A stretch of 64,000 nucleotides of DNA. Source: Candidatus Dadabacteria bacterium. GTDB lineage: Bacteria > Desulfobacterota_D > UBA1144 > Nemesobacterales > Nemesobacteraceae. The DNA is taken from contig OX638332.1 in the NCBI GenBank assembly GCA_951812735.1, positions 1,469,928 to 1,533,927 on the forward strand. Reading direction: 5' to 3'. The position numbers were made by a program, and so were the translations under genes. A model generated the notes under the pieces. It did not search any database, had not been told where the DNA came from, and worked only from the letters and a program-made list of their open reading frames with translations. This document shows, piece by piece, positions 10,062-44,417 of this stretch; position 1 is the first letter of the stretch, and each line of letters starts with the position of its first letter.

Positions 10062-10096
10062 TCAAAAAAAGGGGGAGCGCCAAGCGACGCTCCCTC
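10062..10096 (-). terminator. rho-independent terminator of paralog P1
   Basis: Minus-strand RNA 'GGGAGCGUCGCUUGGCGCUCCC' followed by 'CCUUUUUUUGAU', about 90 nt past the P1 stop. Confidence 0.6.
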
Positions 10097-10184: not shown

Positions 10185-11237
10185 CTAAGACCGAACACCG
10201 TTCTGTCTGTCAATCGCACGCCTTCTGAACGATATGGTGAAAAACAGTGCGGACACTATCAATAGCAGATTAAACATGGTACCCCGAGGCGCATTGTCGC
10301 TTCCCGCCACAATTGCACAACCTCCGCCACTGACAGCTTTAGTCTCGCCGGCCGTATCACCCATGTCGTCCATGTCATCCATGTCGTCCATGTCATCCCC
10401 GTCGTCCATGTCATCCCCGTCACCAGCCATTCCGTCCCCGTCACATCCTGGCGGTGGGTTGCCCGTTTTCGGATAGATGCCGGAACCAAAGATAATACCC
10501 GGAGAAGGGGAGAGCGCCGCCGCTCCCAAGTACACAAATGGGTTTATAACGTAGCTAGTTTTCCAAGAGTCGCCAGGGGCCTTTCCAGGAATGGAATTCC
10601 CATTCGAATCGACTATTTCGTCATCCGGTACATCCGGATCATCCCAGCAATACTCAACAATGCCGTTGCTGCTGGGACTTCGTGCCTCGCCAATAATTAA
10701 CCCAGGGACATCCCGGCCGCCCTCGTCCTCGGCAACCAGCTCCACCCCCTCAATACTTTGATCAACTCCGCTAAAAAGCATCTCTCCTTGATCATCTATG
10801 ACGAAAAGATACACGGAACCCGACTTCCAATCTCCGTCTTCCCTGCCAAACACCTGATGAAAGGGGAGGTCAAAATTGCACGCTTCGTTTTCATCTATAT
10901 CCGCCCTAGTCAGTTGTACAGTAGAAAACAGCTTAATAAGTGGTTTTATCTCTTCTACCGTAAGAGTTGAAAGATCAGGAATTTGGTCTTGGAAAGGATC
11001 GAGTTTAGGAATTTTGCTAAAATCACAAGTCTCTTTTATAATCTTATTTATGTAATACTCGTCAACCGCTTCCTCTACGAATTGTTTAAGGTCCGCTTCG
11101 GTCTGTACCTCGCTTGCTGTTATGGCATGCACGGAAGCCGTAGTACCGGGAAAGACGCCCCCAAGCGCCAGCAGACATAAAAAAAGACCCGCAAGAGCCC
11201 CAGTCTTAAAGACCGTATTTCGCATCAAAATTCTCAT
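10185..11237 (-). CDS. secreted Cache-like (sCache_2-type) domain protein P1 with acidic DDM repeat and conserved C-terminal Cys-motif/TM/RRR anchor
   Basis: Signal peptide 'ALAGLFLCLLALGG'. Cache-like 'YLFVIDDQGEMLFSG' and 'VEYCWDDPDVPDD...SYVINPF...IIFGSGIYP'. C-terminus 'GGGCAIVAGS...MFNLLLIVSALFFTISFRRRA'. Confidence 0.6.
   Translation of the reverse strand: MRILMRNTVFKTGALAGLFLCLLALGGVFPGTTASVHAITASEVQTEADLKQFVEEAVDEYYINKIIKETCDFSKIPKLDPFQDQIPDLSTLTVEEIKPLIKLFSTVQLTRADIDENEACNFDLPFHQVFGREDGDWKSGSVYLFVIDDQGEMLFSGVDQSIEGVELVAEDEGGRDVPGLIIGEARSPSSNGIVEYCWDDPDVPDDEIVDSNGNSIPGKAPGDSWKTSYVINPFVYLGAAALSPSPGIIFGSGIYPKTGNPPPGCDGDGMAGDGDDMDDGDDMDDMDDMDDMGDTAGETKAVSGGGCAIVAGSDNAPRGTMFNLLLIVSALFFTISFRRRAIDRQNGVRS
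10362..10424. repeat. tandem 9-bp repeat (catgtc[ag]tc, about 7 units) inside P1, encoding D-D-M/G-D units
   Basis: Directly visible 'ccatgtcgtccatgtcatccatgtcgtccatgtcatccccgtcgtccatgtcatcc'. The protein reads 'DGDDMDDGDDMDDMDDMDDMGD'. Confidence 0.7.
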
Positions 11238-11519
11238 TATATCCTCCTTATTGATTCAACAAGATTAAACCCCAAAAACCCGACCTCTCGCCGGGTCATC
11301 GATCGGATTTATCATTCTTGTCTGTTCCGATAAAAATGAACACCGATTCCGGTGCTGGCCGGAACATACATTCCTATAATTAAAACAAAAAAATAAAAAG
11401 ACTGTCAAGCACTTTCAGGGGAAAATCGCGTATAAATCCCTTTGCGCCATGTCTATCATAATTTTGTCCGCAAGTTTCTCTGTAAAAAAGCTTCACAACT
11501 GTGGAGTCGAGGAGGCGGG

Positions 11520-12311
11520 CTACTTTCTGTAGGGCGAGAAATCAGGCGGTCTTTTCTCCACAAACGCATCGGTCCCCTCGGCGGCTTCGTCCGTGGTCTT
11601 GAAAAGATCGAGCGATGCCTTTCCCATGCTTGAGATTCCGAAAAGACCGTCGGTTTCGGAGTTAAAGGAGTATTTGGCAAGCTTAAGGGCGGTCGGGCTT
11701 TTCGAGAGCAGTTCCTCGCACCAGCGCTCTACTTCTGAGTCAAATTCCTCTGCGGGAACGACCCTGTTTACAAGTCCCATCTCAAGGGCTTCTTTGGCCG
11801 AGTACTGCCTGCAGAGATACCACATCTCTCTTGCTTTTCTCTCCCCGATTAGCCTTGAGAGATAAGCCGTTCCAAAACCCGGGTCAACGCTTCCGACCTT
11901 GGGTCCCACCTGCCCGAAGGTGGAATCCTCAGAGGCGATCGCAAGATCGCACATGAACTGCAGTATGTTCCCCCCGCCTATGGCGTAGCCCCTGACTGCC
12001 GCTATGACCGGCTTCGGTATGTTTCTTATAAGGTAGTGAAGATGAGAGACGTAATCCCCGACTCCGAGGAAGCCGTCCTCTCCGCCGGACCCCTTTTTTT
12101 TCTTCTTGAGGTCTCCTCCGCTGCAAAAAGCCTTCCCGCCCGCGCCCCGGAGAACCACAACGCCGACCCCGGCATCTCCCCACGCGTCGGTAAAGGCCGT
12201 GATCATCTCGCGGAGCGTCACGTCCCGAAAGGCGTTGCGCGTTTTGGGGCGGTTTATGGTTATAAAGGCCACCCCGCCCGTTTTTTCGTAGATTATGTCC
12301 TTGAAGTTCAT
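11520..12311 (-). CDS. menB: 1,4-dihydroxy-2-naphthoyl-CoA synthase-like crotonase (MenB family)
   Basis: 'FCSGGD...IRNIPKPVIAAVRGYAIGGGNILQFMCDLAIA' closely follows the MenB core. It contains an in-frame K5 run encoded by an A9 homopolymer. Confidence 0.7.
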   Translation of the reverse strand: MNFKDIIYEKTGGVAFITINRPKTRNAFRDVTLREMITAFTDAWGDAGVGVVVLRGAGGKAFCSGGDLKKKKKGSGGEDGFLGVGDYVSHLHYLIRNIPKPVIAAVRGYAIGGGNILQFMCDLAIASEDSTFGQVGPKVGSVDPGFGTAYLSRLIGERKAREMWYLCRQYSAKEALEMGLVNRVVPAEEFDSEVERWCEELLSKSPTALKLAKYSFNSETDGLFGISSMGKASLDLFKTTDEAAEGTDAFVEKRPPDFSPYRK

Positions 12312-12314
12312 CGG

Positions 12315-13790
12315 CTACCCTTGGTACCACTTCCCGGTGCTTTCCCCGGTAAAGATGTTAACGCACTTGGTCTCAAGGTAGTTGTCTATTCCTTCGGCTC
12401 CGAGTTCCTTTCCGATTCCGCTCTGTTTAAAGCCCCCGTATGGGGTTTCGGGGATTATCCCCCCGTAGGTGTTAACCCAGAGATATCCGGCCTCAACGGC
12501 CTTTGCGACTCGGAGTGCCCGGTTTATGTCCTGTGTCCAGATTCCTCCGGCAAGTCCGTACTCAACGTCGTTTGCCATCGTGATTGCCTCTTCCTCGGTC
12601 TTAAACGGCATGACGCAGACCACCGGTCCGAAAACCTCCTCGCGCGCGAGGGTAGAGCCGGGAGGGACGTCCTCCAAAACTGTGGGCGCTATGTAGTAGC
12701 CCTTCTCGAATCCCTCGGGGCGGTCTCCGCCCGCGATCACTCGCGCTCCTTCTGAGACGCCTTTTTCTATGTAGTTCATTACGCTCTCGTAGTGCTCTTT
12801 TGAGATCACGGTCCCGAATTCGGTTTCGGGGTCTTCGGGGTCCCCGATTCTTATCCTCGAGATCCTGTCTAGGTAAGCCGATAAAAACTCGTCGTATATC
12901 TCTTCGTGGAGCATGAGCCTGGTCACGGCGGTGCAGTTCTCCCCCTGATTAAAGAAACCTCCACGAAGACATGCCTCGACGGCTCCCTCGACGTTTGCGT
13001 CGGGAAAAATCATGCAAGGGGCCTTGCCGCCTAGCTCAAGCGATACCCTTTTTATCTCTCCCGCCGCCGTCCTCATGACGTTTTTTCCGACTTCCGTGGA
13101 ACCAGTAAACGCTATCTTGGCCACATCGGGGTGTTCTGTGAGCGCCTGACCGGCTACTGATCCTTCGCCGGGCACGACGTTGAGCACCCCGTCTGGAAGT
13201 CCTGCCTCTGAGCAGAGTTTCGCCACCTCGAAGATCCCGCATGAGGTAAGTTCAGCGGGTTTTATGACCACGGTGCATCCGGCAACGAGTGCGGGGGCTA
13301 TTTTCCAGAAGGAAAGAAGAAGGGGGAAATTCCACGGGATTATGTGGGCCGCTACGCCCACGGGTTCTTTTATGGTCAGGGATATCTGGTTTTCGTTTAC
13401 CTGCAGGGTTTCTCCGTTAAGACGGGTGTGAGCTCCTGAGTAATACTCAAGCGTTCTCACGGAACCGCCTATCTCAACCTCAGCGCTCTCGCGTATGGGC
13501 TTTCCCGTCTCGCGGGTGTTTACAAGGGCAATCTTATCTCTGTTGTCAGATAGTACCTGGGCGATCCGAAGAAGGTACTTGGCGCGCTCGGATGCAGGGA
13601 GACGAGACCACCCGGGAAAAGCGCGCTCGGCGGCCCGAACTGCTGCGTCGATGTCTTCTGACCCTCCCTGGGCGACCTCCGCCAGGGGTTTTTCCGTTGC
13701 GGGGTTTTCCCTTACGGAGTAAGCGCCGCTTTGCGGCTCCCTTTCCCCGCCGTCAATGAAAAGATCGCACTTTATTTCCGTACTGGCCAT
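12315..13790 (-). CDS. NAD(P)-dependent aldehyde dehydrogenase
   Basis: ALDH signatures 'FTGSTEVGKNVM', 'ELGGKAPCMIF' and the catalytic Cys context 'FFNQGENCTAVTRL'. Confidence 0.85.
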   Translation of the reverse strand: MASTEIKCDLFIDGGEREPQSGAYSVRENPATEKPLAEVAQGGSEDIDAAVRAAERAFPGWSRLPASERAKYLLRIAQVLSDNRDKIALVNTRETGKPIRESAEVEIGGSVRTLEYYSGAHTRLNGETLQVNENQISLTIKEPVGVAAHIIPWNFPLLLSFWKIAPALVAGCTVVIKPAELTSCGIFEVAKLCSEAGLPDGVLNVVPGEGSVAGQALTEHPDVAKIAFTGSTEVGKNVMRTAAGEIKRVSLELGGKAPCMIFPDANVEGAVEACLRGGFFNQGENCTAVTRLMLHEEIYDEFLSAYLDRISRIRIGDPEDPETEFGTVISKEHYESVMNYIEKGVSEGARVIAGGDRPEGFEKGYYIAPTVLEDVPPGSTLAREEVFGPVVCVMPFKTEEEAITMANDVEYGLAGGIWTQDINRALRVAKAVEAGYLWVNTYGGIIPETPYGGFKQSGIGKELGAEGIDNYLETKCVNIFTGESTGKWYQG

Positions 13791-13895
13791 AACTTGAAAA
13801 TTATAACAGACAGTTCCTTATACGTATCCGCCTAGGCACAACTCGGCATTTTGCTGCCTTGTTTCGGAGTCAGTAATAAGGTGCGTTCAAATGCC

Positions 13896-13929
13896 GAGAA
13901 AAACAAGGGCAGTTTCAAGACTGCCCTTG
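13896..13929 (-). terminator. rho-independent terminator of paralog P2
   Basis: 9-bp stem 'caagggcag/ctgcccttg'. The minus-strand transcript ends with a UUUUUCUC tract. Confidence 0.6.
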
Positions 13930-13986
13930 TTAGATCAACTGTTACCGCCAGTTTCAGAAAACTGCCGATATTGCAAGAAAGTCTCT

Positions 13987-15348
13987 CTACGCACGTCTTC
14001 TCAGGAAAACGACCGAGAGTAGGACGGACGCTACCAGAAACAGGTTAAGCAATGCGCCTTGAGACGTATTGCTGGCTCCGGCGATGGTGCACGCTCCGTC
14101 GTTGCCGTCTGCCGGCGTGCTTTCAGGATAAACCCCGGAACCGAAAATGAAGAGCCATTCACCGGGGTGTGGCACAATCTGCGCGTTTAAGTCCGCTACC
14201 TCGATGTAGCTTGTCTTGGGTGACATGCCGGGAACCATCCTATCTTCGAACCACATTGCAGTTGGTGTATCTCCCGGTTTTAACCAGTGATATTCGACTG
14301 TGGCGGAAGCTCCGACTTCTACGGCCCCTAATTTTTCGTGAAACAGTCTCGCTATGTTCCGTTCACCTTCCAACAGATTATCATTCAAGTCAAGGTTATA
14401 GCCATTTAGGTCAAAGCTGGCTCCGTTCACAAGCACTGTGGACTGTGCTGGGTCTGCGTCCATTACGAAAGCATATATGCTTCCATACTTGAAATCCTCG
14501 CTTCCGAAACAAAAAAGCCGCTCTTGAATTCTTAAGGTTATGGGGCCCTGAACAAGGGCTGCCAGCGTCTGCCTGTCGTCTAAATTACTAATTGGGTCTA
14601 GAGATGGATTTGCGGCTAGCGCTTTGACAGCTTCTTCCTGTGATATCTTTGCTACGTCTTTTTGAACCGCGTCTATAACACTTTGTACGTAAGCTTGAAG
14701 CTTCGTGTGGTCCTCCTCAACTTGCGCAGCGGTAGTGGCAAGCTCGAGACCTTCACAGCCAGGAGGAACAAAGGCGGAGTCGTCTACCGCATGACGAAGA
14801 CCTACTATGTTTGTTACAGGGCTACCAGCAACGGTTTCCTCCACTTTGGCTGCACAGGCCACCCTTTCATTGTTCGGGCCGTAATCCACGCACACCGGAG
14901 GAGCCCCAATCGCAAGATCTTCATGGTCGAGTAAAGCTTTTAAAGTAGCTGCAACCGCCGAATCCATGGCATCCGGATTAAACCTGTATCCTATTCTTAC
15001 GGGATATCCCGCGTGATTCGTTACAATATTCCTGTCCGTTATGCCTATTGCGTAGATATCACCGTGCTTATAGTCTCCGCCATCTTGCCTGATGTTTCTG
15101 GCGAATATTGTCAGTTCTCTGATCAGCGCGGCGCGGTCATCCATGTTGTCGGTTCTAACATGTTCATAGTAATCCACAATACGATTAACAAAATCCGTCA
15201 TCTTCTGTTCATTCCCAGGATCGTCCGCTACATCTTGCGCGGTTATCGTACTGTCTCCGTGAGTGCCGGACGCATCAATGGCGAATGAAAAAACAAGCCC
15301 CAGCGCGAAAAACAGGCTCAACAGTATTCCGTGTGTTTTGAATTTCAT
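13987..15348 (-). CDS. secreted tandem Cache-like domain protein P2 with C-terminal Cys-motif/TM/RRR anchor
   Basis: Signal peptide 'ILLSLFFALGLVFSFAIDA'. 'IYAFVMDADPAQSTVLVNGASFDLNGYNLD' and 'VEYHWLKPGD...KTSYIEVADL...LFIFGSGVYPE' match the sCache_2 pattern. C-terminus 'GNDGACTIAGAS...LLNLFLVASVLLSVVFLRRRA'. Confidence 0.6.
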   Translation of the reverse strand: MKFKTHGILLSLFFALGLVFSFAIDASGTHGDSTITAQDVADDPGNEQKMTDFVNRIVDYYEHVRTDNMDDRAALIRELTIFARNIRQDGGDYKHGDIYAIGITDRNIVTNHAGYPVRIGYRFNPDAMDSAVAATLKALLDHEDLAIGAPPVCVDYGPNNERVACAAKVEETVAGSPVTNIVGLRHAVDDSAFVPPGCEGLELATTAAQVEEDHTKLQAYVQSVIDAVQKDVAKISQEEAVKALAANPSLDPISNLDDRQTLAALVQGPITLRIQERLFCFGSEDFKYGSIYAFVMDADPAQSTVLVNGASFDLNGYNLDLNDNLLEGERNIARLFHEKLGAVEVGASATVEYHWLKPGDTPTAMWFEDRMVPGMSPKTSYIEVADLNAQIVPHPGEWLFIFGSGVYPESTPADGNDGACTIAGASNTSQGALLNLFLVASVLLSVVFLRRRA

Positions 15349-15939
15349 TCTGATTACTCCTCACTGTGATTTTTGTTGTACCAATATTATAGTGCAAAAT
15401 TAATACTTTTCCGCATTAAATCATAATTCAAGGTAGTTATCCCTATAACTAGTCACTTGCTCCATCATATTATTAAGGAATTATTCTTTTAGGTTGACAG
15501 ATTACCGATTGAGCATCGCAGGCTGTGAAAGCTCCATACATCCTAGGGAGGATTGTATTCTATTGCTTAACTGCTTGTCAAGTAAAGGTTAAGTTGTTTC
15601 AGGGCAATACGGAACATCCAATCCTAGCAAGTCCTCCTCTCCATTCGGGTGAATGGAACTCTCAAACTTCCCCAACATGAATTCAGCCGATGAATTGCCC
15701 GCTTCCACGGGAAGCAAAGATGTCGCTGGGACGGGATGGCTCTGGGAATTTAAAGCACTACACTGCGGGTTCAAGGAGGCGATACGGGGTTTGTAGGGCT
15801 TGTAAACTTAAATCTGTACCCCTTCCTCAATCATTAGATCCAAAAACACTTGAATATTATACAAAAAACACTAGGGAGAGTGCCGTCCTCCAGCAACCTC
15901 CCTCCCTCATCTTACTTCTGGCTGGTTATAGGGGCAGTT

Positions 15940-16095
15940 ACCAAAAAAATCTATGTGGTAAATCCCTCAGGATTCTTGGAAGAGTGTCAGGATTTTTACT
16001 GCGGGCGGGTCCTGCCTCTCGTGTTTGATTTCCGGAGTCAACAAGAGGGTCGCGCTTTGCTGTTTTCCAGATCAGGCAGACAGCGCTTTTGTTGA
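15940..16095 (+). pseudogene. remnant of nucleoside 2-deoxyribosyltransferase-like gene (N-terminal fragment only; ATG replaced by ACC)
   Basis: 'KKIYVVNPSGFLEECQDFYCGRVLPLV' is paralogous to the N-terminus of the 17814..18275 gene. The reading frame terminates after about 50 aa and the remaining space is too short for a full gene. Confidence 0.35.
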
Positions 16096-16143
16096 TTCTT
16101 TTACTTTCTTGCTTTGAAGAGGATTAAGGTGTTTCGTAATGTC

Positions 16144-16204
16144 GAAAAAAAACTGGTTATCAAGGGCGACATCAACTCGTTTGTGAAAACCGCCCTTGAT
16201 AACC
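16144..16204 (-). terminator. rho-independent terminator of paralog P3
   Basis: 14-bp stem 'ggttatcaagggcg...cgcccttgataacc', followed on the minus strand by 'aguuuuuuuuc'. Confidence 0.6.
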
Positions 16205-16250
16205 AGCTATAAGTTCCGGAAAAAGCTTCCGGAAAAATTTTTGTTCCCAC

Positions 16251-17657
16251 CTATACGCGTCTTCTCAGAAAAACAACCGAGAACAGAACGGACATTGTCA
16301 GGAACAGGTTAAGCAACGTGCTCTGAGGCATATGTCCCGTCCCCGCGATTGCGCATCCGTCACCACCATCTCCTGTTGTCATCTCCGGCATCATCTCATC
16401 CTCAGGATAAGTTCCGGAACCAAAGATGTAGAGAAAATCAGGAAACATGCTATATCTAGGGTCCAGTTTCAAGACCTCGGTTATGTTCGCAACCTCAATG
16501 TAGCTTGTCTTAGGCGAACTGCCGGGAACCGATCCCATTTCAAACCAGCCGGGAATGCCATCGTCCGGATCATCGGGGTCGTCCCAGCGGTAGCTGACGG
16601 TAGCGGATTGTCCAGCTTGATAGGTTCCACTTCCGCCTGTCAATTCGTCGCGAAACAGGCTCACTATACTATCGTCAGTCCTTCCCAATTCATCGTCATT
16701 CACTTGAAGGTCAAGGCCGTTCAGGTCGAAGTTGTTTCCGTTCATAAGTACGGTGCCGGCCATATCCGTACTCATGATGAAAGCGTATATGTTCTTATGC
16801 TTGAAGTCCCCGCTTGCAAAACAAGCGATTGTGTCGAAAACTCTTTCGAATATTTTTGTTTGAAATTCGCCTGCCGCAGCTAACCCATCTGGATCTTGCG
16901 GATTAGTAAGTAGCACAAAAGACCGAGCCAAGAGACTAGCATTATCTGGATCATTAAATGCAGCATCAGTTGAATCTACCAGTAGCTGTTGAGCAGCCCC
17001 GATAATACCTTTTACGTAATCTTTAAGCTTATCGTGGTCGTTATAAACTTGCTCAGCGGTAGTATCAAGCATGAAATTGTTGCAGGCATCGGGAAGAGCA
17101 AAAGCAGCATCGTCTTCCGCGTGATGAAGGCCTGCTATGACTGTTATAATTCCGGAAAGGCTCCTTACTTTTGTCGCGCAGGCTACATTGTCCTGACCGT
17201 CATAATTTTCTTCACAATGTGCCATGTCGACATCTGAACCGTCGATTAAAGCTTGTATGGTACTCGCAATAGGTGTCCCGGGATCCGATTTAAGCTGGTG
17301 ACCGAGTAACGATCGGGAATATATAGCGTGATTCGTTACATATCCCCTTGAGTTTAAGGCCATTGAGTACATGTTGTTTTGGGTGTTTTTATAGGGCCCT
17401 TCTTCCCTGAGCCGCCTTCCATATATTGTAATTTCCCTGTTCTGCGCATCCGGGGCGCTATCGGCAATAACCTGATCGTAGTAATCTATTATATGACCAA
17501 GAAAGGCTTCCACTTCCGCTTTACTTGTAGGGTCGACGTCTCCCGCGGCTGTGCCTGTACCGTCCCCGTGACTGGCGGACGCCTCAATGCCGAACGAAAA
17601 AACAAGCCCGAGCGCAAAAAACAGGCTCAAAACCATTCCGTATGTTCTAAGTCTCAT
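16251..17657 (-). CDS. secreted tandem Cache-like domain protein P3 with C-terminal Cys-motif/TM/RRR anchor
   Basis: Signal peptide nearly identical to P2 ('MVLSLFFALGLVFSFGIEA'). 'NIYAFIMSTDMAGTVLMNGNNFDLNGLDLQ' and 'VSYRWDDPDDPDD...KTSYIEVANI...LYIFGSGTYPE'. C-terminus 'GDGGDGCAIAGTG...LLNLFLTMSVLFSVVFLRRRV'. Confidence 0.6.
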   Translation of the reverse strand: MRLRTYGMVLSLFFALGLVFSFGIEASASHGDGTGTAAGDVDPTSKAEVEAFLGHIIDYYDQVIADSAPDAQNREITIYGRRLREEGPYKNTQNNMYSMALNSRGYVTNHAIYSRSLLGHQLKSDPGTPIASTIQALIDGSDVDMAHCEENYDGQDNVACATKVRSLSGIITVIAGLHHAEDDAAFALPDACNNFMLDTTAEQVYNDHDKLKDYVKGIIGAAQQLLVDSTDAAFNDPDNASLLARSFVLLTNPQDPDGLAAAGEFQTKIFERVFDTIACFASGDFKHKNIYAFIMSTDMAGTVLMNGNNFDLNGLDLQVNDDELGRTDDSIVSLFRDELTGGSGTYQAGQSATVSYRWDDPDDPDDGIPGWFEMGSVPGSSPKTSYIEVANITEVLKLDPRYSMFPDFLYIFGSGTYPEDEMMPEMTTGDGGDGCAIAGTGHMPQSTLLNLFLTMSVLFSVVFLRRRV

Positions 17658-28816: not shown

Positions 28817-29946
28817 CGACTTTACTCACGATCAGCGAATGGGCGCTGCATACAAAAGCCCCCCTGCTTTCCAGGAAGCGTTAAGCCCTCTTTCAAGTGC
28901 TAGAGGAGTCTTGGGCCCCAGATGCCTTTCGAATATTTCCCCGTAGTTGCCTACGGCTGAAATTGCGTTAACGGCCCACTTTTTGTCAAGACCGAGCATT
29001 TCGCCCATGCTGCCTTCGGTGCCTAGAAAACGGTTCATACCCGGATTATTTCCAGGCTTCTTAGCGAGTTCCTTGACGTTTTTCTGGGTGATGCCCATCT
29101 CTTCTGCGATAATCAGCGCGTTGACCACCCACTTTCCGATATCAGCCCAACGGTCATCTCCGTGGCGCACCGCGCCGCCCAGGGGTTCTTTTGAAATGAT
29201 TTCGGGAAGAATCACATGCTCTGAAGGATTTTTCAGCGCCGCTCGCGTAGAGGCTAAAGCCGACGCGTCGGTTGTGTACACGTCGCATCTTCTGCTTTCA
29301 TACATGATGATGCTCTCTGCGTTGGTTCCGGTATTGAGATGCTCGTACTCCATTTTGTTGAATCTGAAGTAATCCGACAAGTTAAGTTCCGTGGTGGTGC
29401 CGACCTGGACGCATACTGAAGCCCCGGCCAGCTGTTTTGCCGACGTTACCCCAAGACTCCTGCGGATTAAAAAGCCCTGACCATCATAGTAGTTAACGGG
29501 TAGGAAGGTCAGTTTCAGGTCAGCGTCACGACTCAGCGTTTCGGTGGTGTTGCGGAAGAGTATGTCGCCTTCGCCAGCATTTAGCTGGGCAAAACGCGTT
29601 CTATTCGTAGACGGTACGAAATTTACCTTGTCCCCGCTTCCCAGCACGGCAGCGGCTACGGCGCGACAGAAATCGACATCAAAACCCTGCCAGCCGCCTT
29701 TTCCGTCCGGAGATGCGAATCCGGCCAAGCCCGATGAAACAATACAGTTGAGCTTGCCTCGCGCTTTGACATCCTCAAGGGTGCCGGCATCAGCCATGGC
29801 TGTGAATGAAAACAGTACGGCAATAATTGCCAGAAGCTTCGTTACTCTCATACCTACTATTTTCTTAAGCAGGATGAACCGTCTTGAATTTAAGGATGAA
29901 ATCAGATTTCTGCCCCCTCTCTTATGTAAAATAATCATATTTTCCA
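28817..29946. repeat. duplicated segment A (aapJ copy 1 plus about 15 nt 3' and about 95 nt 5' flank)
   Basis: Near-identical to 33077..34200, including the post-stop 'gtttactcacgatcagcgaatgggcgctgc' and the upstream 'cttgaatttaagga' element. Confidence 0.75.
28832..29851 (-). CDS. aapJ: general L-amino-acid ABC transporter substrate-binding protein, copy 1 (start at internal Met preceding the signal peptide)
   Basis: Signal peptide 'MRVTKLLAIIAVLFSFTAMA', then 'GKLNCIVSSGLAGFASPDGKGGWQGFDVDFCRAVAAAVLG' typical of the AapJ/BztA family. About 93% nucleotide identity to the 33093..34112 copy. Confidence 0.8.
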   Translation of the reverse strand: MRVTKLLAIIAVLFSFTAMADAGTLEDVKARGKLNCIVSSGLAGFASPDGKGGWQGFDVDFCRAVAAAVLGSGDKVNFVPSTNRTRFAQLNAGEGDILFRNTTETLSRDADLKLTFLPVNYYDGQGFLIRRSLGVTSAKQLAGASVCVQVGTTTELNLSDYFRFNKMEYEHLNTGTNAESIIMYESRRCDVYTTDASALASTRAALKNPSEHVILPEIISKEPLGGAVRHGDDRWADIGKWVVNALIIAEEMGITQKNVKELAKKPGNNPGMNRFLGTEGSMGEMLGLDKKWAVNAISAVGNYGEIFERHLGPKTPLALERGLNASWKAGGLLYAAPIR

Positions 29947-30741
29947 TCAGTGATTCAGTATCTGGCTTAAAAACAGCTTCGTTCTTTCATGCTGCGGGTT
30001 CAGGAAAAAGTCGTCGGGGTTGTTCTCCTCAATTATTTCTCCGTTGTCCATGAAGATGACGCGGTCGCCGACAGTTCTTGCGAATCCCATTTCATGGGTC
30101 ACGCATATCATGGTGATCCCTTCGCTTGCCAGCTGAATCATCACATCCAGCACTTCCTTGATCATTTCGGGGTCAAGTGCCGATGTGGGTTCGTCAAACA
30201 GCAGTATCCGGGGTTTCATGCAGAGACTTCGCGCTATCGCCACGCGCTGCTGCTGGCCCCCGGAGAGCTGACCCGGGTACTTGTCCGCCTGCTCGGGAAT
30301 CTTGACTCTTTCCAGGTATTGCATGGCAATTGCGTTTGCCTCCGCAAGAGGCATTTTGCGGACCCATATGGGGGCAAGGGTACAGTTCTCAAGCACCGTC
30401 AGATGCGGAAACAGGTTGAAGTGCTGAAAGACCATGCCCACCTCGCGCCGAATGATCTCGATGTTCTTGATGTCATGGGACAGTTCTATTCCCTCAACGG
30501 TGATTTCTCCCTGCTGGTGTTCCTCCAGCCGGTTGATGCATCTGATTAATGTTGATTTCCCCGAACCCGATGGGCCGCATATAACGATTTTTTCCCCGAC
30601 TTCGACATTAAGATTGATGTTTTTAAGCGCATGGAACTTGCCGTACCATTTGTGCACATCCCGCATTGTTACCGCATATTTCCCCGCGGCCGATTTTGTT
30701 TCCTCATTCACTGATTCAGGTTTTTGGGTCATTTGCGCCAT
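29947..30741 (-). CDS. aapP: amino-acid ABC transporter ATP-binding protein
   Basis: Walker A 'GPSGSGKST', signature '[15 protein letters not shown]', Walker B '[12 protein letters not shown]'. Confidence 0.85.
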
Positions 30742-30746
30742 GCTCC

Positions 30747-31856
30747 TTATCTTTTATGATCGGTTTCCAGTTTGTTTTCAAGGTGCTGTGAATATCTTGC
30801 CATACCAAAACAGGAGATAAAAAAGAATATTGCCACGAACAGATAAACCTCGGTTGAGAGCCCCGTCCACTTTGTATCTGCGAGAGATGCCCTGCCTATT
30901 CCAAGCGGATCCAGAAGCCCGATAATAATTACCAGCGTTGTATCCTTGTATAGTCCGATAAAAGTATTCACTATGCCGGGTATGGAAATCTTCATCGCCT
31001 GGGGCAATACGATCAGCCTCATGGCGGACCAGTAATGCAGCCCCATTGAATCCGCGGCTTCGAACTGTCCTTTCGGTATTGCCTGCAGACCTCCACGGAT
31101 AACTTCCGCCATGTATGCCGACGCGAAAAGGGTAACCATAATCAGTACGCGCAGCAGAAGATCGAAAGTCACTCCTGGAGGGAGGAAATAATTAAGCATC
31201 GTTGAAGCTACGAACAGAAGAGTAATCAACGGTACTCCGCGGATAAACTCAATGAAGCCTATTGAAAATATCTGTATTGCGGGGAGCTTCGACTGACGAC
31301 CCAGAGCCAGCAGAATCCCGATCGGTAATGAAAACCCGATGCCGGTTATCCCGATGACCAGGGTAAGCATGAAACCGCCGAACTGGTCGGTTTCGACAGG
31401 GGTAAGACCCAGTCCTCCGACCAGAAGCCATGCGGTGACGAATGGGAAGGCGACCGCGATATGAAGAGCGTATTTGCGATAAGGCACTTTTTCAAAGAGT
31501 ATCGGAAAGAGAGTGAAAATCAGCAGGACAAGTGAAAGATTCACCCGCCAGCGCTCAGCGGCTGGGTAAAAACCATAGGTGAACAGGTTAAGACGTTCAC
31601 CTATAACTGCCCAGCACGCACCGCCAGCCTTGGCGCTGCATTCATCTCTGCTTCCCCCGGTAAATGCCGCGTCAAGAAACAGCCAGTCCACAAGCGCGGG
31701 AACGGTTTCAATCAGGAACCAGAACGCCAGAAGCGTTAAAACTATGTTTGTGGCACTTGAGAAAAAATTTTTTCTTGTCCAGGCGTAGATCCCTATTACG
31801 TTACGAGGCGGCGGAAGATCGGGATGCTCTCCAACTTTGTAGTTTTTTTGGTTTAT
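30747..31856 (-). CDS. aapM: amino-acid ABC transporter permease (AapM-like); start is probably a non-ATG codon upstream of the ORF-track Met
   Basis: The frame is open from just after the aapQ stop. The extension '[45 protein letters not shown]' looks like a genuine permease N-terminus. An AGGAGG RBS lies 8 nt before an in-frame ATA codon at 31856-31854. Confidence 0.7.
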
Positions 31857-31868
31857 AACTATTTCCTC

Positions 31869-33044
31869 CTAACGTTCAACCAGCCTGATTCGTTTGTTGT
31901 AGATGTTCATCGCGAAGGATATCAGCAGGGATAACGAGAGATACAGCAATAGCACGATAATCATGCATTCCATTTCCCTGCCCGTCTGGTTAAGCGTAAT
32001 GCCACCGATGGTGGCGACTATATCCATGTAGCCGATCGCGATGGCTAGAGATGAATTCTTGGCAAGGTTAAGATATTGCGAGGTAAGCGGTGGTACTATC
32101 ACTCTCAGCGCCTGGGGAATCACGACTAGGTTAAGCGTTCTGCCGTGGTTTATCCCAAGGGCCAGGGACGCTTCGGTCTGCCCGTAATTGACGGAGATGA
32201 TACCGGCCCTTACTATCTCGGCTATAAACGCGGCTGTATACAGGGAAAGTGCAATCCAAAGTGCGGTGAATTCAGGCCTGATCACCATGCCTCCGCTAAA
32301 GTTAAATCCCGTCAGCGCGGGTATCTCAAAGGTGATCGGACCACCTATCAGAAAATAGGAGACAAACGGAATTCCCAGTATGGCCCCCAGCGATATCCAG
32401 AACACCGGGTAGTGCTCTCCCGTTTTTCTCTGTATGTCCGCCGCATATCTGCGGAACCATATTGTGAAAACAATCCCTGCGGTGAACAAGCCCAGAATCA
32501 CCAGAAACAGAGGTTCGAAAATTGGTTTGGGAAGAAAAAAGCCGCGATTAGTCAGAAACGCGATATCGCCGAGACTTTGCGCTTCTCTGGGCACGGGAAG
32601 CGTATTAACTATGATCCCGTATACAAGTAGTATGTGGAGCAGTACGGGTACATTCCTTACGTAATCAATATAGATGTGGGCAAGCTTGTTTGCCAGCAGG
32701 TTTTTCGACAGCCGCAGAACACCCAGCGAGAATCCAAGAACCGTTGCCAGAACTATGCCGCTTACCGCCACCAGAAGGGTGTTCAGAATTCCCACCAGCA
32801 TTGCGCGGAAGTGAGTGGAACGGGACGTGTATTCTATTAGATGCTGATTTATATCATAGCTTGCGGGCTCCTGCAGATAGCCGAAACTAAACCCTTTGCC
32901 TATTGCTTCAAGGTTGACAATGGCATTTCTTACTAGGTAGGCGAACAAGCCGAAGATCAGCACGACTGCGAGGACCTGAATAATAACGGATCGGGAATGT
33001 TCATCCCTCCACAATCGAGACAGAGAAACTTTTGGATCCATCAC
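31869..33044 (-). CDS. aapQ: amino-acid ABC transporter permease (AapQ-like)
   Basis: Polytopic permease with EAA-loop context 'EASLALGINHGRTLNLVVIPQALR'. Confidence 0.8.
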   Translation of the reverse strand: MMDPKVSLSRLWRDEHSRSVIIQVLAVVLIFGLFAYLVRNAIVNLEAIGKGFSFGYLQEPASYDINQHLIEYTSRSTHFRAMLVGILNTLLVAVSGIVLATVLGFSLGVLRLSKNLLANKLAHIYIDYVRNVPVLLHILLVYGIIVNTLPVPREAQSLGDIAFLTNRGFFLPKPIFEPLFLVILGLFTAGIVFTIWFRRYAADIQRKTGEHYPVFWISLGAILGIPFVSYFLIGGPITFEIPALTGFNFSGGMVIRPEFTALWIALSLYTAAFIAEIVRAGIISVNYGQTEASLALGINHGRTLNLVVIPQALRVIVPPLTSQYLNLAKNSSLAIAIGYMDIVATIGGITLNQTGREMECMIIVLLLYLSLSLLISFAMNIYNKRIRLVER

Positions 33045-33076
33045 ATTCGTGCTGCGGCTTCGGTTTGAATCATTAT

Positions 33077-34200
33077 TGACGTTTACTCACGATCAGCGAA
33101 TGGGCGCTGCGTACAAAATCCCCCCTGCTTTCCAGGAAGCATTAAGCCCCCTTTCAAGCGCTAGAGGAGTCTTGGGCCCCAGATGCCTTTCGAATATTTC
33201 CCCGTAGTTGCCTACGGCTGAAATTGCGTTAACGGCCCACTTTTTGTCAAGACCGAGCATTTCGCCCATGCTGCCTTCGGTGCCTAGAAAACGGTTCATA
33301 CCCGGATTATTTCCAGGCTTCTTAGCGAGTTCCTTGATGTTTTTCTGGGTGATGCCCATCTCTTCTGCGATAATCAGCGCGTTGACCACCCACTTTCCGA
33401 TATCAGCCCAACGGTCATCTCCGTGGCGCACCGCGCCGCCCAGGGGTTCCTTTGAAATGATTTCGGGAAGAATCACATGCTCTGAAGGTTTTTTCAGCGC
33501 CGCTCGCGTAGAGGCTAAAGCCGATGCGTCGGTTGTGTACACGTCGCATCTTTTGCTTTCATATGCGACGATGCTTTCTTCATTTGTTTCGGTATTGACA
33601 GGCTCGTACTTCATTTTGTTGGCTCTGAAGTAATCCGCCAGGTTAAGTTCCGTGGTGGTACCGGTCTGGATGCACACTGAAGCTCCGGCCAACTGTGTTG
33701 CTGACGTTACCCCAAGACTTTTGCGGATTAAAAAGCCCTGACCATCATAGTAGTTAACGGGCAGGAAGGTCAGTTTCAGGTCAGCGTCACGACTCAGTGT
33801 TTCGGTGGTGTTGCGGAAGAGTATGTCGCCTTCGCCAGCATTTAGCTGGGTAAAACGCGTTTTATTCGTAGTCGGTACAAATTTCACTTTGTCCCCGCTT
33901 CCCAGCACGGCAGCGGCTACGGCGCGGCAGAAATCGACATCAAAGCCCTGCCAGTTGCCTTTTTCATCCGGAGAGGCGAATCCGGCCAAGCCCGATGAAA
34001 CAATACAGTTGAGCTTGCCTCGTGCTTTCACATTTTCAAGGGTGCCGGCATCAGCCATGACTGTGAATGAAAACAGTACGGCAATAATTACCAAAAAATT
34101 TGTCACTCTCATACCAAGTACCTCCTTAGAGTAGGGTCTTTTGAATTTAAGGACGGAATCAAACATTTGAAAAACTCTCCTTATTCTAATTTTAAATGCA
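33077..34200. repeat. duplicated segment B (aapJ copy 2 with flanks)
   Basis: See 28817..29946. The 3' roughly 450 bp and the 5' roughly 250 bp of the genes are almost identical. Confidence 0.75.
33093..34112 (-). CDS. aapJ: general L-amino-acid ABC transporter substrate-binding protein, copy 2 (start at internal Met with strong RBS)
   Basis: Signal peptide 'MRVTNFLVIIAVLFSFTVMA'. 'taaggaggtacttggtATG' RBS. Differs from copy 1 mainly in a central block. Confidence 0.8.
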   Translation of the reverse strand: MRVTNFLVIIAVLFSFTVMADAGTLENVKARGKLNCIVSSGLAGFASPDEKGNWQGFDVDFCRAVAAAVLGSGDKVKFVPTTNKTRFTQLNAGEGDILFRNTTETLSRDADLKLTFLPVNYYDGQGFLIRKSLGVTSATQLAGASVCIQTGTTTELNLADYFRANKMKYEPVNTETNEESIVAYESKRCDVYTTDASALASTRAALKKPSEHVILPEIISKEPLGGAVRHGDDRWADIGKWVVNALIIAEEMGITQKNIKELAKKPGNNPGMNRFLGTEGSMGEMLGLDKKWAVNAISAVGNYGEIFERHLGPKTPLALERGLNASWKAGGILYAAPIR

Positions 34201-34368
34201 ATCATATTCTCCGGCGTTTTGCAATTAGGAATATCAGGGACGGAAGGAAAAATTTTTGCGAATTCAGAAATCAAAACGCGAGAAAAACAAGCAAGTCATT
34301 ATGACACACAGAGAACCGGTTGGCATTTGATAAACCAGAGATGGGATTTTAGAGGCGGACGAAGGAGT

Positions 34369-41175: not shown

Positions 41176-42435
41176 TCAGTTTACGGGAACGTACCCGTTT
41201 TCATCAACGTGCTCCCTTACCTTGCCCAGAACGTAGGGATCTATCCACTGCTCGTCTATATATTCGGGATAGACGGGAAGTCTTTCCCTAAGCTCGTAAC
41301 CCAGTGCGCTTACCTCCCTCTCCATTCTCTCAACCTGCGGCCACGGGGCCTCGGGGTTAACGTAGTCTATTGTAAGGGGCGACACGCCGCCGAGATCATT
41401 TATGCCGGCTGTGAGGTAGAAGGTGAAGTTCCTGTTGTTAAGGTTAGGCGGTATCTGTATGTTCATCTCCCCTCCGAATATGAGCCTTGAGATGGCGACG
41501 GTCTTGAGCATCTCGAGAAAATCGGCGGGAGGATACTCCTCCATTCTTATTCCTTCCTTGGGGTTAAAGTTCTGAATTATTATCTCCTGCAGGTGACCGT
41601 GGCGGCGGGAGAGTTCCAAAAGGGCGTAGAGCGAGTCGATTCTTTCCTCAAAGGTTTCCCCTATTCCTACCAGTATGCCGCTTGTCCAGGGAATACTGAG
41701 GTCGCCCGCATACTCCATGGTCTCCATCCTGAGTTTCGGGACCTTGTCCGCGCAGCCGTGGTGGGCGTTTCCCCGCTTAAGCAGCCTCTCGCTTATGTTC
41801 TCAAGCATGAGGCCCATGCTTGGGTTGCTTTTTCTGAACTCAGAGAGTTCTTCCGGGGTCGAGAGCCCGAGGTTTGTGTGGGGAAAGATTCCGTGCTCAA
41901 GCCCGGTTTTTCCCATGTCGATCAGATACTCCGCTGTCGTTTGGTAACCGATTTCCCCGAGGGCGTCTCTGTATACCTGGTAGGCGAGTTCCGGCTTGTC
42001 ACCCGTAACGAAAAGAAGTTCCGTGCACCCGGCCTTCGCCCCTTTTTTCGCCATGTCGACGACCTCTTCGGGGGTCATGAACAGAGCTCCCTCTCCCGGC
42101 TCTATCTTGAACGTGCAGTATCCGCAGCGGTCTCTGCAGAGCTGGGTCAGGGGTACGAAAACGTTTTTGGAGTAAGTTATTGTTTTTCCCTTTGAACGGT
42201 TCCTGACAGCCGACGCTGCCAGAAGAAGAAAAGGAATTTCCCTGGGGAAAAGCTCGGTAAGGTAGAGGGCGTCTTCACGCGTGACGCTTTCTTCCTCGAT
42301 TGCTTTTGATATTACTTTCTCAAGTTTCGGGGAGGGGCGAAGCTCCGAGAAGTCTCTCGCGCTGAATGTTTCAAGCAGCATGGAGCTTTCGTTTTCGCCG
42401 AATGTTTTTTCCCAAGTCTCAGCTAAAAGGGTCAT
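41176..42435 (-). CDS. cofG: FO synthase subunit CofG (radical SAM); start set at internal Met 'MTLLAETWEK'
   Basis: 'CRDRCGYCTF' radical-SAM motif and CofG-like length from Met122 of the 540-aa ORF. The upstream 121 codons overlap the divergent P4 region and are rejected. Confidence 0.8.
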   Translation of the reverse strand: MTLLAETWEKTFGENESSMLLETFSARDFSELRPSPKLEKVISKAIEEESVTREDALYLTELFPREIPFLLLAASAVRNRSKGKTITYSKNVFVPLTQLCRDRCGYCTFKIEPGEGALFMTPEEVVDMAKKGAKAGCTELLFVTGDKPELAYQVYRDALGEIGYQTTAEYLIDMGKTGLEHGIFPHTNLGLSTPEELSEFRKSNPSMGLMLENISERLLKRGNAHHGCADKVPKLRMETMEYAGDLSIPWTSGILVGIGETFEERIDSLYALLELSRRHGHLQEIIIQNFNPKEGIRMEEYPPADFLEMLKTVAISRLIFGGEMNIQIPPNLNNRNFTFYLTAGINDLGGVSPLTIDYVNPEAPWPQVERMEREVSALGYELRERLPVYPEYIDEQWIDPYVLGKVREHVDENGYVPVN

Positions 42436-42677: not shown

Positions 42678-44417
42678 ATGTGCACCTGTCTCCTGCGCCT
42701 CTCCCGTAGTTCCGCCCAGGCCGCAACGGGTCTTCTTCTCCTTCTTGCCGTCGTACTCGGCGCGCAGCCGGAGCCGGCCCACGCGCAGACCACAGCAACT
42801 TACACGGTAACGTTTGAAGGCAACTGGAACACCGACAGCACGCCCGGCGGGGTTGTGGGCGGCGCGCATTTCACGACGCTAATCGGCGCCGTGCATAACA
42901 GCGATGTGAGCTTCTGGGCACCGGGCGGCACGGCCACCGCCGGCGTTGAGGGGGTGGCGGAACTTGGCGCTACGGGCACGTTCAGGTTGGAAATCACCGC
43001 CGCCGGGGCAAACGTAAAATCCACCGTCCAGGAGAGTGGGACCGGCGCCACGGGCACGAGCACGTTCGAAGTCGAATTCAGCCGTACCCATCCCCTACTT
43101 ACCCTCTTGTCCATGATCGGCCCCAGCCCGGACTGGTTCGTGGGTGTCTCCGGTCTGTCTATGCTTGATGGATCGGATGCCTGGCGATCCTCTCACACGG
43201 TAGACCTGTTTCCTTACGACGCCGGCACGGAGGACGGTGAAGAATTTTCGCTGAACAATACCGCAACCAGCCCCCGGGGAACCATCACCAGCCTCGGGGG
43301 ACAAGGGAAATTCTCCGACACGCGCATGGCGAGGCTGAGTTTCACGCTTAAGACACCTTTGCCACCCCCCCCCACGCCTCCGTCTCCCCCTGAAGAAGAG
43401 ATATGCGTCGTTTCCGAAGTGACCGATGACCGGAGCCTCAGCAGATTCGTTGAGTGCGCGGCGGAGAACATAGAGGACTCTGTCACCTTTGAGGAGACAC
43501 TTAGCCTCCTTGACGAGTTCAGAAATGACGAAGGAGACTGGAATGACGGTTCCACTTACTTTGTTCTTCTCACCAAAGGAGGTGGGGTGTACTTCCACGC
43601 CCACGCCCCCGACAGGGAAGCGGAAGACCGGAGATGGTCAGGGACTGTCTTCTGTGACGAGGAGGGAGGAGACGTGCTTAACCTGCAAGCGGGAGATGGA
43701 TGCGCCATAGAGGGCGGCGGCTACGCCCATTCGTTCTCCGCTTCCCATGTTCCCCTGACCCGCGCCGGGGACGAATTCGTCCTGCTGGGCGGTTTCGACG
43801 AAACTCCCGAGGGGGAACCTTTCACGGAGATGATTGACGGACCCTCAACGGAAGCCGGGAATGTGGATACCGAAGAAGATCTGATGAAATTCGTGGGAGA
43901 GGCGGTGAAAGCCCTCAGGAAAACCGTAGGGGATCCTCTGATTGACCCCGTGCAGCTGCGGGGAGTTCTGAGACAGGAGCCGTGGAGAGAGGGGGAAGTG
44001 TATGTTTACATCATGGATGAGACTGGAAGGGTGATATTCGACGGCGGGGACAGGAGCAAGGAGCAGAAGCTAACGGATGATTCCGGAAGGGAATACGTCG
44101 TGGGGGAGCTTATAGCGGAGGGTGAAGAAGAAGTGGGGCACGTGGAAGGCGATTTCTGGATTTACGCTGAAAAGGTAGAAGAGGACAGTCGAATATACAT
44201 CGTGGGTTCGGGGTACCAGCCCGAGCCGGGTGAAAGCGGCGACGGAGGCGGGGGCTGCGCTGTCGGAGGGAGCGGTAGCGACGGCACATTCGGCCTGTCT
44301 CTTATAGCGTTGGCGCTGCTTCTAATAGTCTTGCTTAAAGACACTCGGCGTCAGGCAAGACGTATTGAGTTGAGGCGGGGTGTTGTCGCTTGTAACCGCT
44401 TAAGAGAAACGGAATAG
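42678..44417 (+). CDS. secreted Spondin_N + Cache-like domain protein P4 with C-terminal Cys-motif/TM/basic anchor
   Basis: Signal peptide 'LLLLLAVVLGAQPEPAHA'. Spondin_N hallmarks 'AHFTTLIGAVHNSDVSFW' and 'GPSPDWFVGVSGL...YDAGTEDGEEF'. Pro-rich linker. Cache-like 'VYVYIMDETGRVIFDGG'. C-terminus 'GDGGGGCAVGGSG...LSLIALALLLIVLLKDTRRQARR'. Start assigned to Met105 of the ORF. Confidence 0.65.
   Translation: MCTCLLRLSRSSAQAATGLLLLLAVVLGAQPEPAHAQTTATYTVTFEGNWNTDSTPGGVVGGAHFTTLIGAVHNSDVSFWAPGGTATAGVEGVAELGATGTFRLEITAAGANVKSTVQESGTGATGTSTFEVEFSRTHPLLTLLSMIGPSPDWFVGVSGLSMLDGSDAWRSSHTVDLFPYDAGTEDGEEFSLNNTATSPRGTITSLGGQGKFSDTRMARLSFTLKTPLPPPPTPPSPPEEEICVVSEVTDDRSLSRFVECAAENIEDSVTFEETLSLLDEFRNDEGDWNDGSTYFVLLTKGGGVYFHAHAPDREAEDRRWSGTVFCDEEGGDVLNLQAGDGCAIEGGGYAHSFSASHVPLTRAGDEFVLLGGFDETPEGEPFTEMIDGPSTEAGNVDTEEDLMKFVGEAVKALRKTVGDPLIDPVQLRGVLRQEPWREGEVYVYIMDETGRVIFDGGDRSKEQKLTDDSGREYVVGELIAEGEEEVGHVEGDFWIYAEKVEEDSRIYIVGSGYQPEPGESGDGGGGCAVGGSGSDGTFGLSLIALALLLIVLLKDTRRQARRIELRRGVVACNRLRETE

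Follow-up and report, generated by a model that had tools for sequence, protein, structure and literature searches.

Tandem Cache proteins with a Cys-type C-terminal tail in Candidatus Dadabacteria: predicted ligand binders without a signalling output

A stretch of 64,000 nucleotides from Candidatus Dadabacteria (contig OX638332.1, positions 1,469,928 to 1,533,927), referred to here as the window, encodes a small family of Cache-type proteins, for which we propose a role outside classical signal transduction. Two complete open reading frames (ORFs) occupy the interval 13987-17657 on the minus strand, B453 (453 amino acids, 13987..15348) and C468 (468 amino acids, 16251..17657), and align with each other over their full length at 42.5% identity (E about 1e-100). 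We propose that these proteins are Sec-exported, disulfide-bonded and processed in a Cys-dependent manner to a C-terminal lipid anchor, probably at the cell surface, and that they bind ligands without signalling; in our judgement this proposal stands about even between right and wrong.

C468 is composed of a signal peptide (residues 1-29, MRLRTYGMVLSLFFALGLVFSFGIEASA, followed by SH; 17571..17657) with a basic n-region, a 15-residue hydrophobic core and an A-S-A site, two sCache_2-like modules (residues about 40-200, 17058..17540, and about 201-425, 16383..17057), an acidic linker and a Cys-type sorting tail, all on the minus strand. B453 has the same architecture, its N-terminal module (residues 43-206, 14731..15222), C-terminal module (residues 207-411, 14116..14730) and tail (13990..14109) scoring 200, 240 and 80 bits, respectively, with the family hidden Markov models (HMMs). 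A third gene on the same strand, A350 (350 amino acids, 10185..11237), encodes a signal peptide, one sCache_2 module, an Asp/Met-rich linker and the same type of tail, and can be aligned only with the C-terminal halves of B453 and C468 (27-31% identity, tblastn in the window). Whereas an earlier reading of the window from its letters alone (the sequence-only reading) had counted four paralogs, tblastn and motif scans find three; no fourth was detected by tblastn, motif or HMM in the window, the spacers hold no decayed copy, and the fourth protein (42366-44417, Spondin_N) shares the tail type only. The placement of the proteins outside the cytoplasm agrees with their signal-peptide-like N-termini and with a C-terminus formed by a Cys motif, a hydrophobic helix and RRR in all three; the A-x-A cleavage site, four invariant cysteines and the positive-inside Arg cluster after the helix all point to an extracytoplasmic location.

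Cache modules and the predicted ligand pocket

In an AlphaFold2 model (pLDDT 84.7, pTM 0.81) computed from an alignment of 87 sequences, itself built from 199 homologs, residues about 40-200 and about 201-425 each form an alpha/beta module; after them come an acidic, disordered linker and a terminal helix. The predicted modules are PAS-like, carry long N-terminal helices and lie nearest to solved sCache_2 structures, the top PDB match in Foldseek being 4EXO/2QHK (probability 1.0). Structures of the dCache type superpose with one module only (at most 149 residues), and each module has N-terminal helices of its own. Since the dCache targets cover just one module, we regard the proteins as single Cache modules arranged in tandem rather than as a dCache. 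In profile-profile comparison (hhalign) the N- and C-modules matched only locally and weakly (E 4.5e-3, with a probability of 7.7%) and could not be forced into a global alignment, so that an internal duplication is supported by structure and not by sequence. As modelled, the fold is of the Cache/sCache_2 type in both halves, which bears out the tandem sCache_2-like modules of the sequence-only reading, and no enzymatic domain was recognised.

At the level of Pfam, the assignment can be made for A350 but not for B453 and C468. A350 passes the sCache_2 cut-off of 25 with 26.6 bits and stays under that of dCache_2 (24.0 bits, cut-off 26.5). Relatives recruited into the family at E<=1e-19 reach 79.9 bits (P0196), 60.9 bits (an ORF of locus L037) and 43.5 bits (P0155) with sCache_2, and up to 88.7 bits with dCache_2, where the alignment spans one module only, about positions 50-190 out of 298 in the profile. 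Sequence-level membership of B453 and C468 in sCache_2 is thus transitive, running through A350 and these relatives; for the C-terminal module of C468 it consists in homology to A350 and to the Pfam-passing relatives. The motifs quoted in the sequence-only reading are indeed present, IYAFVMD...TVLVNG, VEYHW, KTSYIEV and FGSGVY in B453 and IYAFIMS...TVLMNG, VSYRW and FGSGTY in C468. They occur, however, once per protein and in the C-terminal module only, where two sets had been claimed, and the N-terminal module keeps only a degenerate counterpart (MYSMGIN..G.VTNHA).

In the chemoreceptor domain of PscD, which belongs with McpP and Adeh_3718 to the carboxylate-sensing sCache_2 subgroup, Tyr90, His103, Tyr143 and Lys156 hydrogen-bond the carboxylate of the ligand, which is sandwiched between Trp92 and Trp145, and Tyr, His and Lys have been proposed as the carboxylate triad of sCache_2 domains (PMC5062169). 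Pairwise alignments of one relative with PscD (5G4Y) and 2QHK, which are weak sCache_2 alignments and not structural superpositions, place Tyr90 at Tyr291 of the C468 C-module, His103 at Asn306, Tyr143 at Tyr356, Lys156 at Lys383, Trp92 at Phe293 and Trp145 at Trp358. Among the 87 sequences, whose mean column identity is 40%, Y291, F293, Y356, W358 and K383 are invariant and N306 is kept in 99%. Because the pocket residues are retained at 99-100% amid such a low mean identity, we infer that the membrane-proximal C-module still binds a small ligand of the carboxylate type. A small-molecule binding role, as suggested in the sequence-only reading, therefore appears plausible.

The N-terminal module seems to have taken a different course. 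Of the pocket residues it keeps equivalents of the Tyr and the His only, the invariant Tyr97 and His110. In place of Tyr143 and Lys156 stand, to judge from the strand register, the invariant Cys148 and Cys160, for which a cross-strand disulfide in a remodelled site is the likeliest interpretation. H110, H179 and four cysteines are invariant in the 87 sequences, and every branch has a nearly invariant His one or two residues past the point where the signal peptide is predicted to be cleaved. A metal- or redox-active protein outside the cytoplasm might therefore be considered, comparable to stand-alone sCache_heme proteins and built on the mature N-terminal His, the cysteines and a GLHH..DD motif; Cache proteins that stand alone and have redox-type roles are known. 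Against this, the family has neither a CXXCH motif nor an enzymatic or cytochrome domain, and the cysteines are better explained as disulfides of an exported protein; we regard such a function as very improbable, and the specific reading as a heme-Cache was rejected for the absence of CXXCH.

The N-terminal His deserves a remark of its own. It corresponds to His30 in C468 (window 17568-17570), has an equivalent in B453 and is conserved in 92% of the main subfamily. The context is EASA[SDTG]-H-G-D-G in the proteins discussed here and AVA/HEG, AGA/HENDH or SFA/HDGDH (slash at the predicted cleavage site) in the family genes of divergent branches (L036, L037, L039). A His at mature position 1 or 2 of an exported protein recalls Cu(II)-binding N-termini.

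A hypervariable family with no linked signalling gene

Among extracytoplasmic sensors no fold is commoner than Cache, and no domain family is larger. Over 90% of Cache domains are wired to signalling modules (bioRxiv 10.64898/2026.02.01.703092), and the Pfam Cache models were defined on sensors lying between the two membrane helices of receptors with a cytoplasmic output. The proteins described here depart from this architecture, because the B453 and C468 polypeptides end four residues past their helix. In agreement with the sequence-only reading, Pfam and NCBIfam revealed no signalling output domain in any of the window's three proteins, nor in the 16 relatives that were scanned. Longer relatives contain additional Cache modules, and others carry one Cache module and the tail behind five fn3 domains, He_PIG Ig-like domains or leucine-rich repeat (LRR) arrays.

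An exhaustive search of 1.84 billion representative proteins with the family profile returned 263 clusters (defined at 50% identity) at E<=1e-3. All named homologs are called 'Candidatus Dadabacteria hypothetical protein', and the family entries carry no domain annotation. The 43 loci found in a scan of GTDB genomes belong to Dadabacteria or to metagenome-assembled genomes named 'Thermodesulfobacteriota bacterium', the phylum of which Dadabacteria is a class according to NCBI. The family is confined to Candidatus Dadabacteria, with at least three to five copies per genome. In at least 18 genomes a common gene order is kept, in which bioB-bioA-bioF and Nuc_deoxyrib_tr are followed by the Cache paralogs, Aldedh and ECH, sometimes by an A350-type gene, and then by prs, L25, pth and H+-PPase. 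The Cache genes at this site vary in copy number.

At this syntenic locus, the flanking genes share 81-99% amino-acid identity with their window counterparts, against 33-76% for the Cache genes. Nei-Gojobori estimates from four genomes with comparable dS gave dN/dS values of 0.02-0.14 for the flanks, 0.34-0.57 for C468 and 0.47-0.58 for B453, and the least conserved region, the helices of the C-module (residues 201-285), reached 0.55-1.07. In one locus (L022) the flanks are 97-99% identical (99% for H+-PPase), while the Cache genes share only 35-36% identity at a dS of 1.3-1.5, which we attribute to replacement by a divergent allele. Taken together, these values are compatible with diversifying pressure on exposed proteins, and the hypervariability, along with the LRR, fn3 and Ig fusions of relatives, argues for an exposed surface role rather than for that of a co-receptor or scavenger.

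The same data could indicate polymorphic surface adhesins or recognition proteins directed at host, kin or phage, in which the Cache modules would be a scaffold or stalk and small-molecule binding vestigial. Such proteins would account for hypervariable genes between conserved flanks, for the allele replacement in L022, for the high dN/dS of the least conserved C-module helices and for the relatives with fn3, He_PIG or LRR arrays, and TraA, a polymorphic receptor of Myxococcus, would be a precedent. The canonical pocket residues, invariant in 87 sequences that are otherwise 40% conserved, nevertheless point to a retained ligand site, and adhesin-type repeats are absent from B453, C468 and A350, so that we hold this explanation to be unlikely.

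Ligand-loaded co-receptors that dock on a separate histidine kinase or chemoreceptor, in the manner of LuxP with LuxQ or of solute-binding proteins with Tar and Trg, would be in keeping with the prevailing use of the Cache fold, and solute-binding proteins that feed sensors are known (PMC8050422). No kinase, MCP/chemoreceptor or GGDEF/cyclase gene was found, however, among the annotated window ORFs or in the syntenic locus, where the Cache genes sit among housekeeping genes (bioBAF, Aldedh, ECH, prs). Divergence this rapid is difficult to square with a docking partner that is conserved, and genes for motility and chemotaxis have been reported, among marine Dadabacteria, as a distinctive trait of a single clade, the hydrothermal one (PMC8115339). 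We consider a co-receptor function quite unlikely. Likewise, no transporter gene is linked to the Cache genes, the closest ABC system (28832-34274) having its own SBP_bac_3 proteins, and none of the window Cache proteins matches a solute-binding protein family in Pfam or NCBIfam.

Some further features of the locus were noted. The Cache genes (window 10185-17657, compared with loci L001-L033) form a hypervariable island between conserved housekeeping genes, and in L022 the Aldedh and ECH genes are more diverged (87-90%), as expected for recombination tracts around such an island. Split or fragmentary family genes occur in L001 (11956-13147), L025 (8101-11348), L029 (9959-11370) and L034 (9977-10379); these N- and C-fragment ORFs and isolated tails indicate frequent pseudogenisation and paralog turnover, or else assembly frameshifts.

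The C-terminal tail and its possible processing

The C-terminal tail is the most conserved part of the family (mean conservation 0.82, compared with 0.78 for the signal peptide and 0.45-0.62 for the mature domains). Its consensus, DGGCAIAGxGHTSQSxLLNLFLxASVLFSVVFLRRRA, has the three-part layout of MYXO-CTERM signals, with a motif GGC[AT]I[AV]G, a helix LLNLFL.ASVLFSVVFL and RRR[AV] directly before the stop. In C468 (16254..16370, minus strand) these parts are GDGCAIAG, the membrane helix LLNLFLTMSVLFSVVFL and RRRV, and in B453 they are GACTIAG, a membrane helix and RRRA; the A350 tail (residues 302-341) scores 59 bits with the family tail HMM. Cys435 is 99% conserved in the family and invariant in the tail alignment.

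The tail is also found on proteins that lack Cache modules. In genome OZ240231.1 it occurs on a 1339-amino-acid LRR/fn3_6 protein (L044, 6281-10300) and on a 979-amino-acid protein with a PPDK_N match and a Thr/Pro linker (L043, 7262-10201), so that, as with MYXO-CTERM, one signal is common to unrelated exported proteins of a single genome. A further carrier is an uncharacterised protein of 504 amino acids (L024, 19240-20754). In the window, the Spondin_N ORF on the plus strand (42366-44417; Spondin_N 127 bits) ends in a comparable tail (44241..44339, GGGGCAVGGSGSDGTFGLSLIALALLLIVLLKDTRRQARR), which matches the tail HMM weakly (13 bits). A tail-profile search of a database of 5.8 billion proteins retrieved 7 short fragments only and was thus uninformative as to further clients of the signal. 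The combination of Cys, membrane helix and basic tail looks like a general sorting signal of Dadabacteria. As the tail, with its invariant Cys motif, is both the most conserved part of the protein and present on unrelated proteins, we interpret the tail as a sorting signal of the MYXO-CTERM kind and not as a plain anchor, and thereby modify the sequence-only reading, in which the proteins were anchored by a C-terminal helix only.

In Myxococcus xanthus, cleavage of MYXO-CTERM depends on the Cys and is carried out by the CPBP protease MrtX, and surface anchoring of TraA requires MYXO-CTERM (PMC11980579); lipidation of the MYXO-CTERM Cys has been proposed in Myxococcus. The Dadabacteria tail has the features that mark a sorting signal of this kind, one that is cleaved and lipidated. 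By analogy, the following sequence of events can be envisaged. After removal of the signal peptide, the four invariant cysteines would pair as disulfides in the periplasm. The tail Cys would be lipidated and an intramembrane sorting protease would remove the helix and the Arg tail, so that the protein would end up tethered by a C-terminal lipid, probably at the cell surface. There, the canonical sCache_2 pocket of the C-module (Tyr291, Tyr356, Lys383, Trp358 and Phe293, with Asn306 for His) may take up a small molecule that bears a carboxylate, and the N-module would present a remodelled pocket with Tyr97, His110 and the Cys148-Cys160 pair in place of Tyr and Lys. Ligand binding would be an end in itself, serving capture, retention or recognition at the surface, and not an input to a kinase or chemoreceptor, and the exposed surfaces would be under diversifying pressure.

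Several observations weigh against this proposal. With respect to the tail, the only NCBIfam match is TIGR03901 (MYXO-CTERM), on which the consensus reaches 18.7 bits against a cut-off of 20 and the B453 tail 14.3 bits (E 0.04, also under the cut-off), and the tails of C468 and A350 do not match this model. Lineage-specific forms of sorting signals need custom models (Haft). A search of the window and of the 43 loci, which amount to about 0.92 Mb from several genomes and are an incomplete sample, found no gene for a CPBP/myxosortase-like enzyme (the cognate family of MYXO-CTERM, with an MrtX/MrtC/MrtP core, NF040914) and none for a rhombosortase or exosortase; 30 membrane ORFs were searched by motif and with Pfam and NCBIfam. 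With respect to the Cache modules, neither Pfam nor NCBIfam yielded a significant match of B453 and C468 to a Cache domain, or to any other domain, whether output or enzymatic; the PDB, searched by sequence with C468 and the family profile, returned nothing meaningful, and the fold is that of a predicted and not of an experimental structure. The His of the carboxylate triad is replaced by Asn306 in the C-module, and the disulfide pairs and the N-module pocket are deduced from strand register alone. Finally, gene-wide dN/dS is below 1, so that positive selection is unproven, and relaxed constraint would give the same figure.

In view of these points, the tail may instead be an uncleaved stop-transfer helix, and the proteins binders or scavengers tethered to the inner membrane and facing the periplasm, with neither lipidation nor surface export. 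With its hydrophobic helix and the RRR behind it, the tail conforms to the positive-inside rule, and both the failure to find a sorting enzyme and the sub-threshold MYXO-CTERM scores are in line with a simple membrane anchor, as are fused double precursors (see below), which would also work as multi-pass membrane proteins. A plain anchor, however, needs no invariant Cys in GGCAIAG and, in a protein that evolves fast, would not be expected to be conserved best, and the presence of a motif-bearing tail on unrelated proteins is the defining behaviour of sorting signals. We therefore regard an uncleaved helix as rather unlikely and retain Cys-dependent processing to a lipid anchor as our proposal.

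In six genomes, fused double precursors of about 870-900 amino acids were detected, in which the series signal peptide, Cache, Cache and Cys tail is run through twice in a single ORF (L031, 9944-12613; L035, 9914-12631; L036, 8678-11308; L039, 8690-11290; L040, 8633-11293; L041, 9833-12505); P0155, P0158, P0166 and P0196 are further relatives of this type. The two precursors are joined by a basic loop and a second signal-peptide-like helix with an AxA/H site. This organisation points either to a polyprotein that the sorting protease and signal peptidase cut apart or to a multi-pass protein whose two ectodomains both lie outside.

Other observations concern the surroundings of the tail and its carriers. 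An acidic stalk ahead of the Cys motif is a family feature. In A350 it is a low-complexity Asp/Met/Gly linker (GDGDDMDDGDDMDDMDDMDDMGD, window 10300-10390) between the Cache module and the tail, and the acidic linkers of B453 and C468 are shorter. The multi-spanning membrane ORFs found in the enzyme search were H+-PPase, ABC permeases, a rhomboid, M50, Lgt, a PEMT/ICMT-like protein, TauE and others. The rhomboid was rejected as a rhombosortase (20 bits compared with 84 for rhombosortase). A few kb from tail genes lie membrane enzymes (L043, 4989-5588; L044, 12198-12956; L024, 5969-6685 and 578-1444; L036, 18388-19050; L039, 17084-17746), namely a PEMT/ICMT-like methyltransferase, Lgt, a rhomboid, a prepilin peptidase and an M50 metalloprotease, but this proximity may be due to chance. 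The PEMT/ICMT-like protein scores 23.7 bits with the isoprenylcysteine methyltransferase model, far under its cut-off, and none of these enzymes is a demonstrated partner.

Genomic context, known systems and significance

The Cache genes of the window are separate transcription units, as C468 is followed by a strong terminator and B453 has a promoter-like site of its own. The former is a double-hairpin intrinsic terminator (16144..16234, minus strand; -46.4 kcal/mol, z -8.07 against shuffled sequences, U8 run) that is kept in other Dadabacteria loci. The latter was found by a consensus scan about 200 nucleotides upstream of B453 (15552..15581, minus strand; TTGACA-18-TACAAT, 11 of 12 positions) and is weak evidence, because promoter-like sites occur in the region in the number expected by chance. 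A terminator-like hairpin (10073..10094, minus strand; 9 pairs, 7 of them GC, T-run) follows A350.

The spacer between C468 and B453 (15349-16250) is unusually long (900 bp), and its C468-proximal 300 nucleotides are 80-84% identical to other genomes. The conserved stretch is made up of the C468 terminator and of conserved sequence in which the 5' end of Nuc_deoxyrib_tr, the neighbouring gene, is partly duplicated. An 80-nucleotide piece (15943-16023) recurs elsewhere within the 5' end of the divergent Nuc_deoxyrib_tr gene, upstream of the first paralog. The spacer, which on the plus strand encodes a fragment (ORF 15850-16095, KKIYVVNPSGF...), is probably the relic of the tandem duplication unit. 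A conserved non-coding RNA in this spacer (15943-16248) was considered and rejected, since identity of 80-84% is the genome background (flanking genes 84-98% at the nucleotide level); moreover, there was no Rfam match, and the covariation term (+1.69) gave no support.

Among described systems, the closest are the sCache_2 (PF17200) domains of chemoreceptors, such as PscD-SD (5G4Y), Adeh_3718 (4K08) and a Vibrio parahaemolyticus MCP (4EXO/2QHK). In contrast to these, the Dadabacteria proteins lack the flanking pair of membrane helices and any HAMP, MCP or kinase module, carry a cleavable signal peptide in place of the first membrane helix and a Cys sorting tail in place of the second, have two tandem modules with Asn for His103, and, as far as B453 and C468 are concerned, fall under Pfam detection. 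The dCache_2 family (PF08269) is, according to the authors of Pfam, a duplication of sCache_2; family matches to it span one module of the profile and not its full length, and each module has its own N-terminal helices. Stand-alone sCache_heme proteins likewise have Cache modules with no signalling output, an arrangement that has been called highly unusual (bioRxiv 10.64898/2026.02.01.703092), and differ from the present family by their CXXCH motif. Tandem modules, a C-terminal sorting signal and distribution in a single lineage further set the Dadabacteria family apart.

With MYXO-CTERM (TIGR03901), the tail shares the invariant Cys, membrane helix and Arg cluster at the extreme C-terminus as well as the occurrence on unrelated exported proteins; JDVT-CTERM and Synerg-CTERM, as well as CGP-CTERM, are related Cys-type signals. 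The client TraA, a polymorphic surface receptor, resembles the hypervariable proteins of the family. The Dadabacteria signal differs in its sub-threshold score, its lineage (known MYXO-CTERM carriers belong to Myxococcota and Bradymonadales only), its single Cys in GGCAIAG instead of the frequent GCGC, the conserved polar stretch GHTSQS between Cys and helix and the failure to find a myxosortase in the sampled loci. Eukaryotic alpha2-delta calcium-channel subunits are also extracellular Cache-containing proteins; they have no detectable sequence relationship with the family beyond the fold and, unlike it, are auxiliary subunits of ion channels with a VWA and dCache architecture. A literature search retrieved no paper linking Dadabacteria with Cache domains or sorting signals.

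The component parts of these proteins are known, and stand-alone Cache proteins have been described already. The members of this family extend the uses of Cache modules to free-standing exported proteins that are present in several copies per genome of roughly 2 Mb. Keeping the predicted canonical pocket while the rest diversifies fast, they offer natural variants with a conserved pocket and a variable surface for ligand screening. The tail places a MYXO-CTERM-like Cys sorting signal outside Myxococcota and Bradymonadales and, in a lineage not yet in culture, provides a concrete target in the search for the protease and the lipid modification. More tentatively, and with less chance of being right than wrong, these proteins might constitute a lineage-specific and rapidly diversifying family of lipid-anchored tandem Cache proteins that bind small carboxylates at the surface without signalling, a prokaryotic counterpart of the lipid-anchored alpha2-delta type that could serve symbiont or streamlined genomes as a polymorphic interface with host, kin or phage. 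The best reading of the family is that of non-signalling, surface-anchored and fast-diversifying ligand binders rather than of classical sensors.

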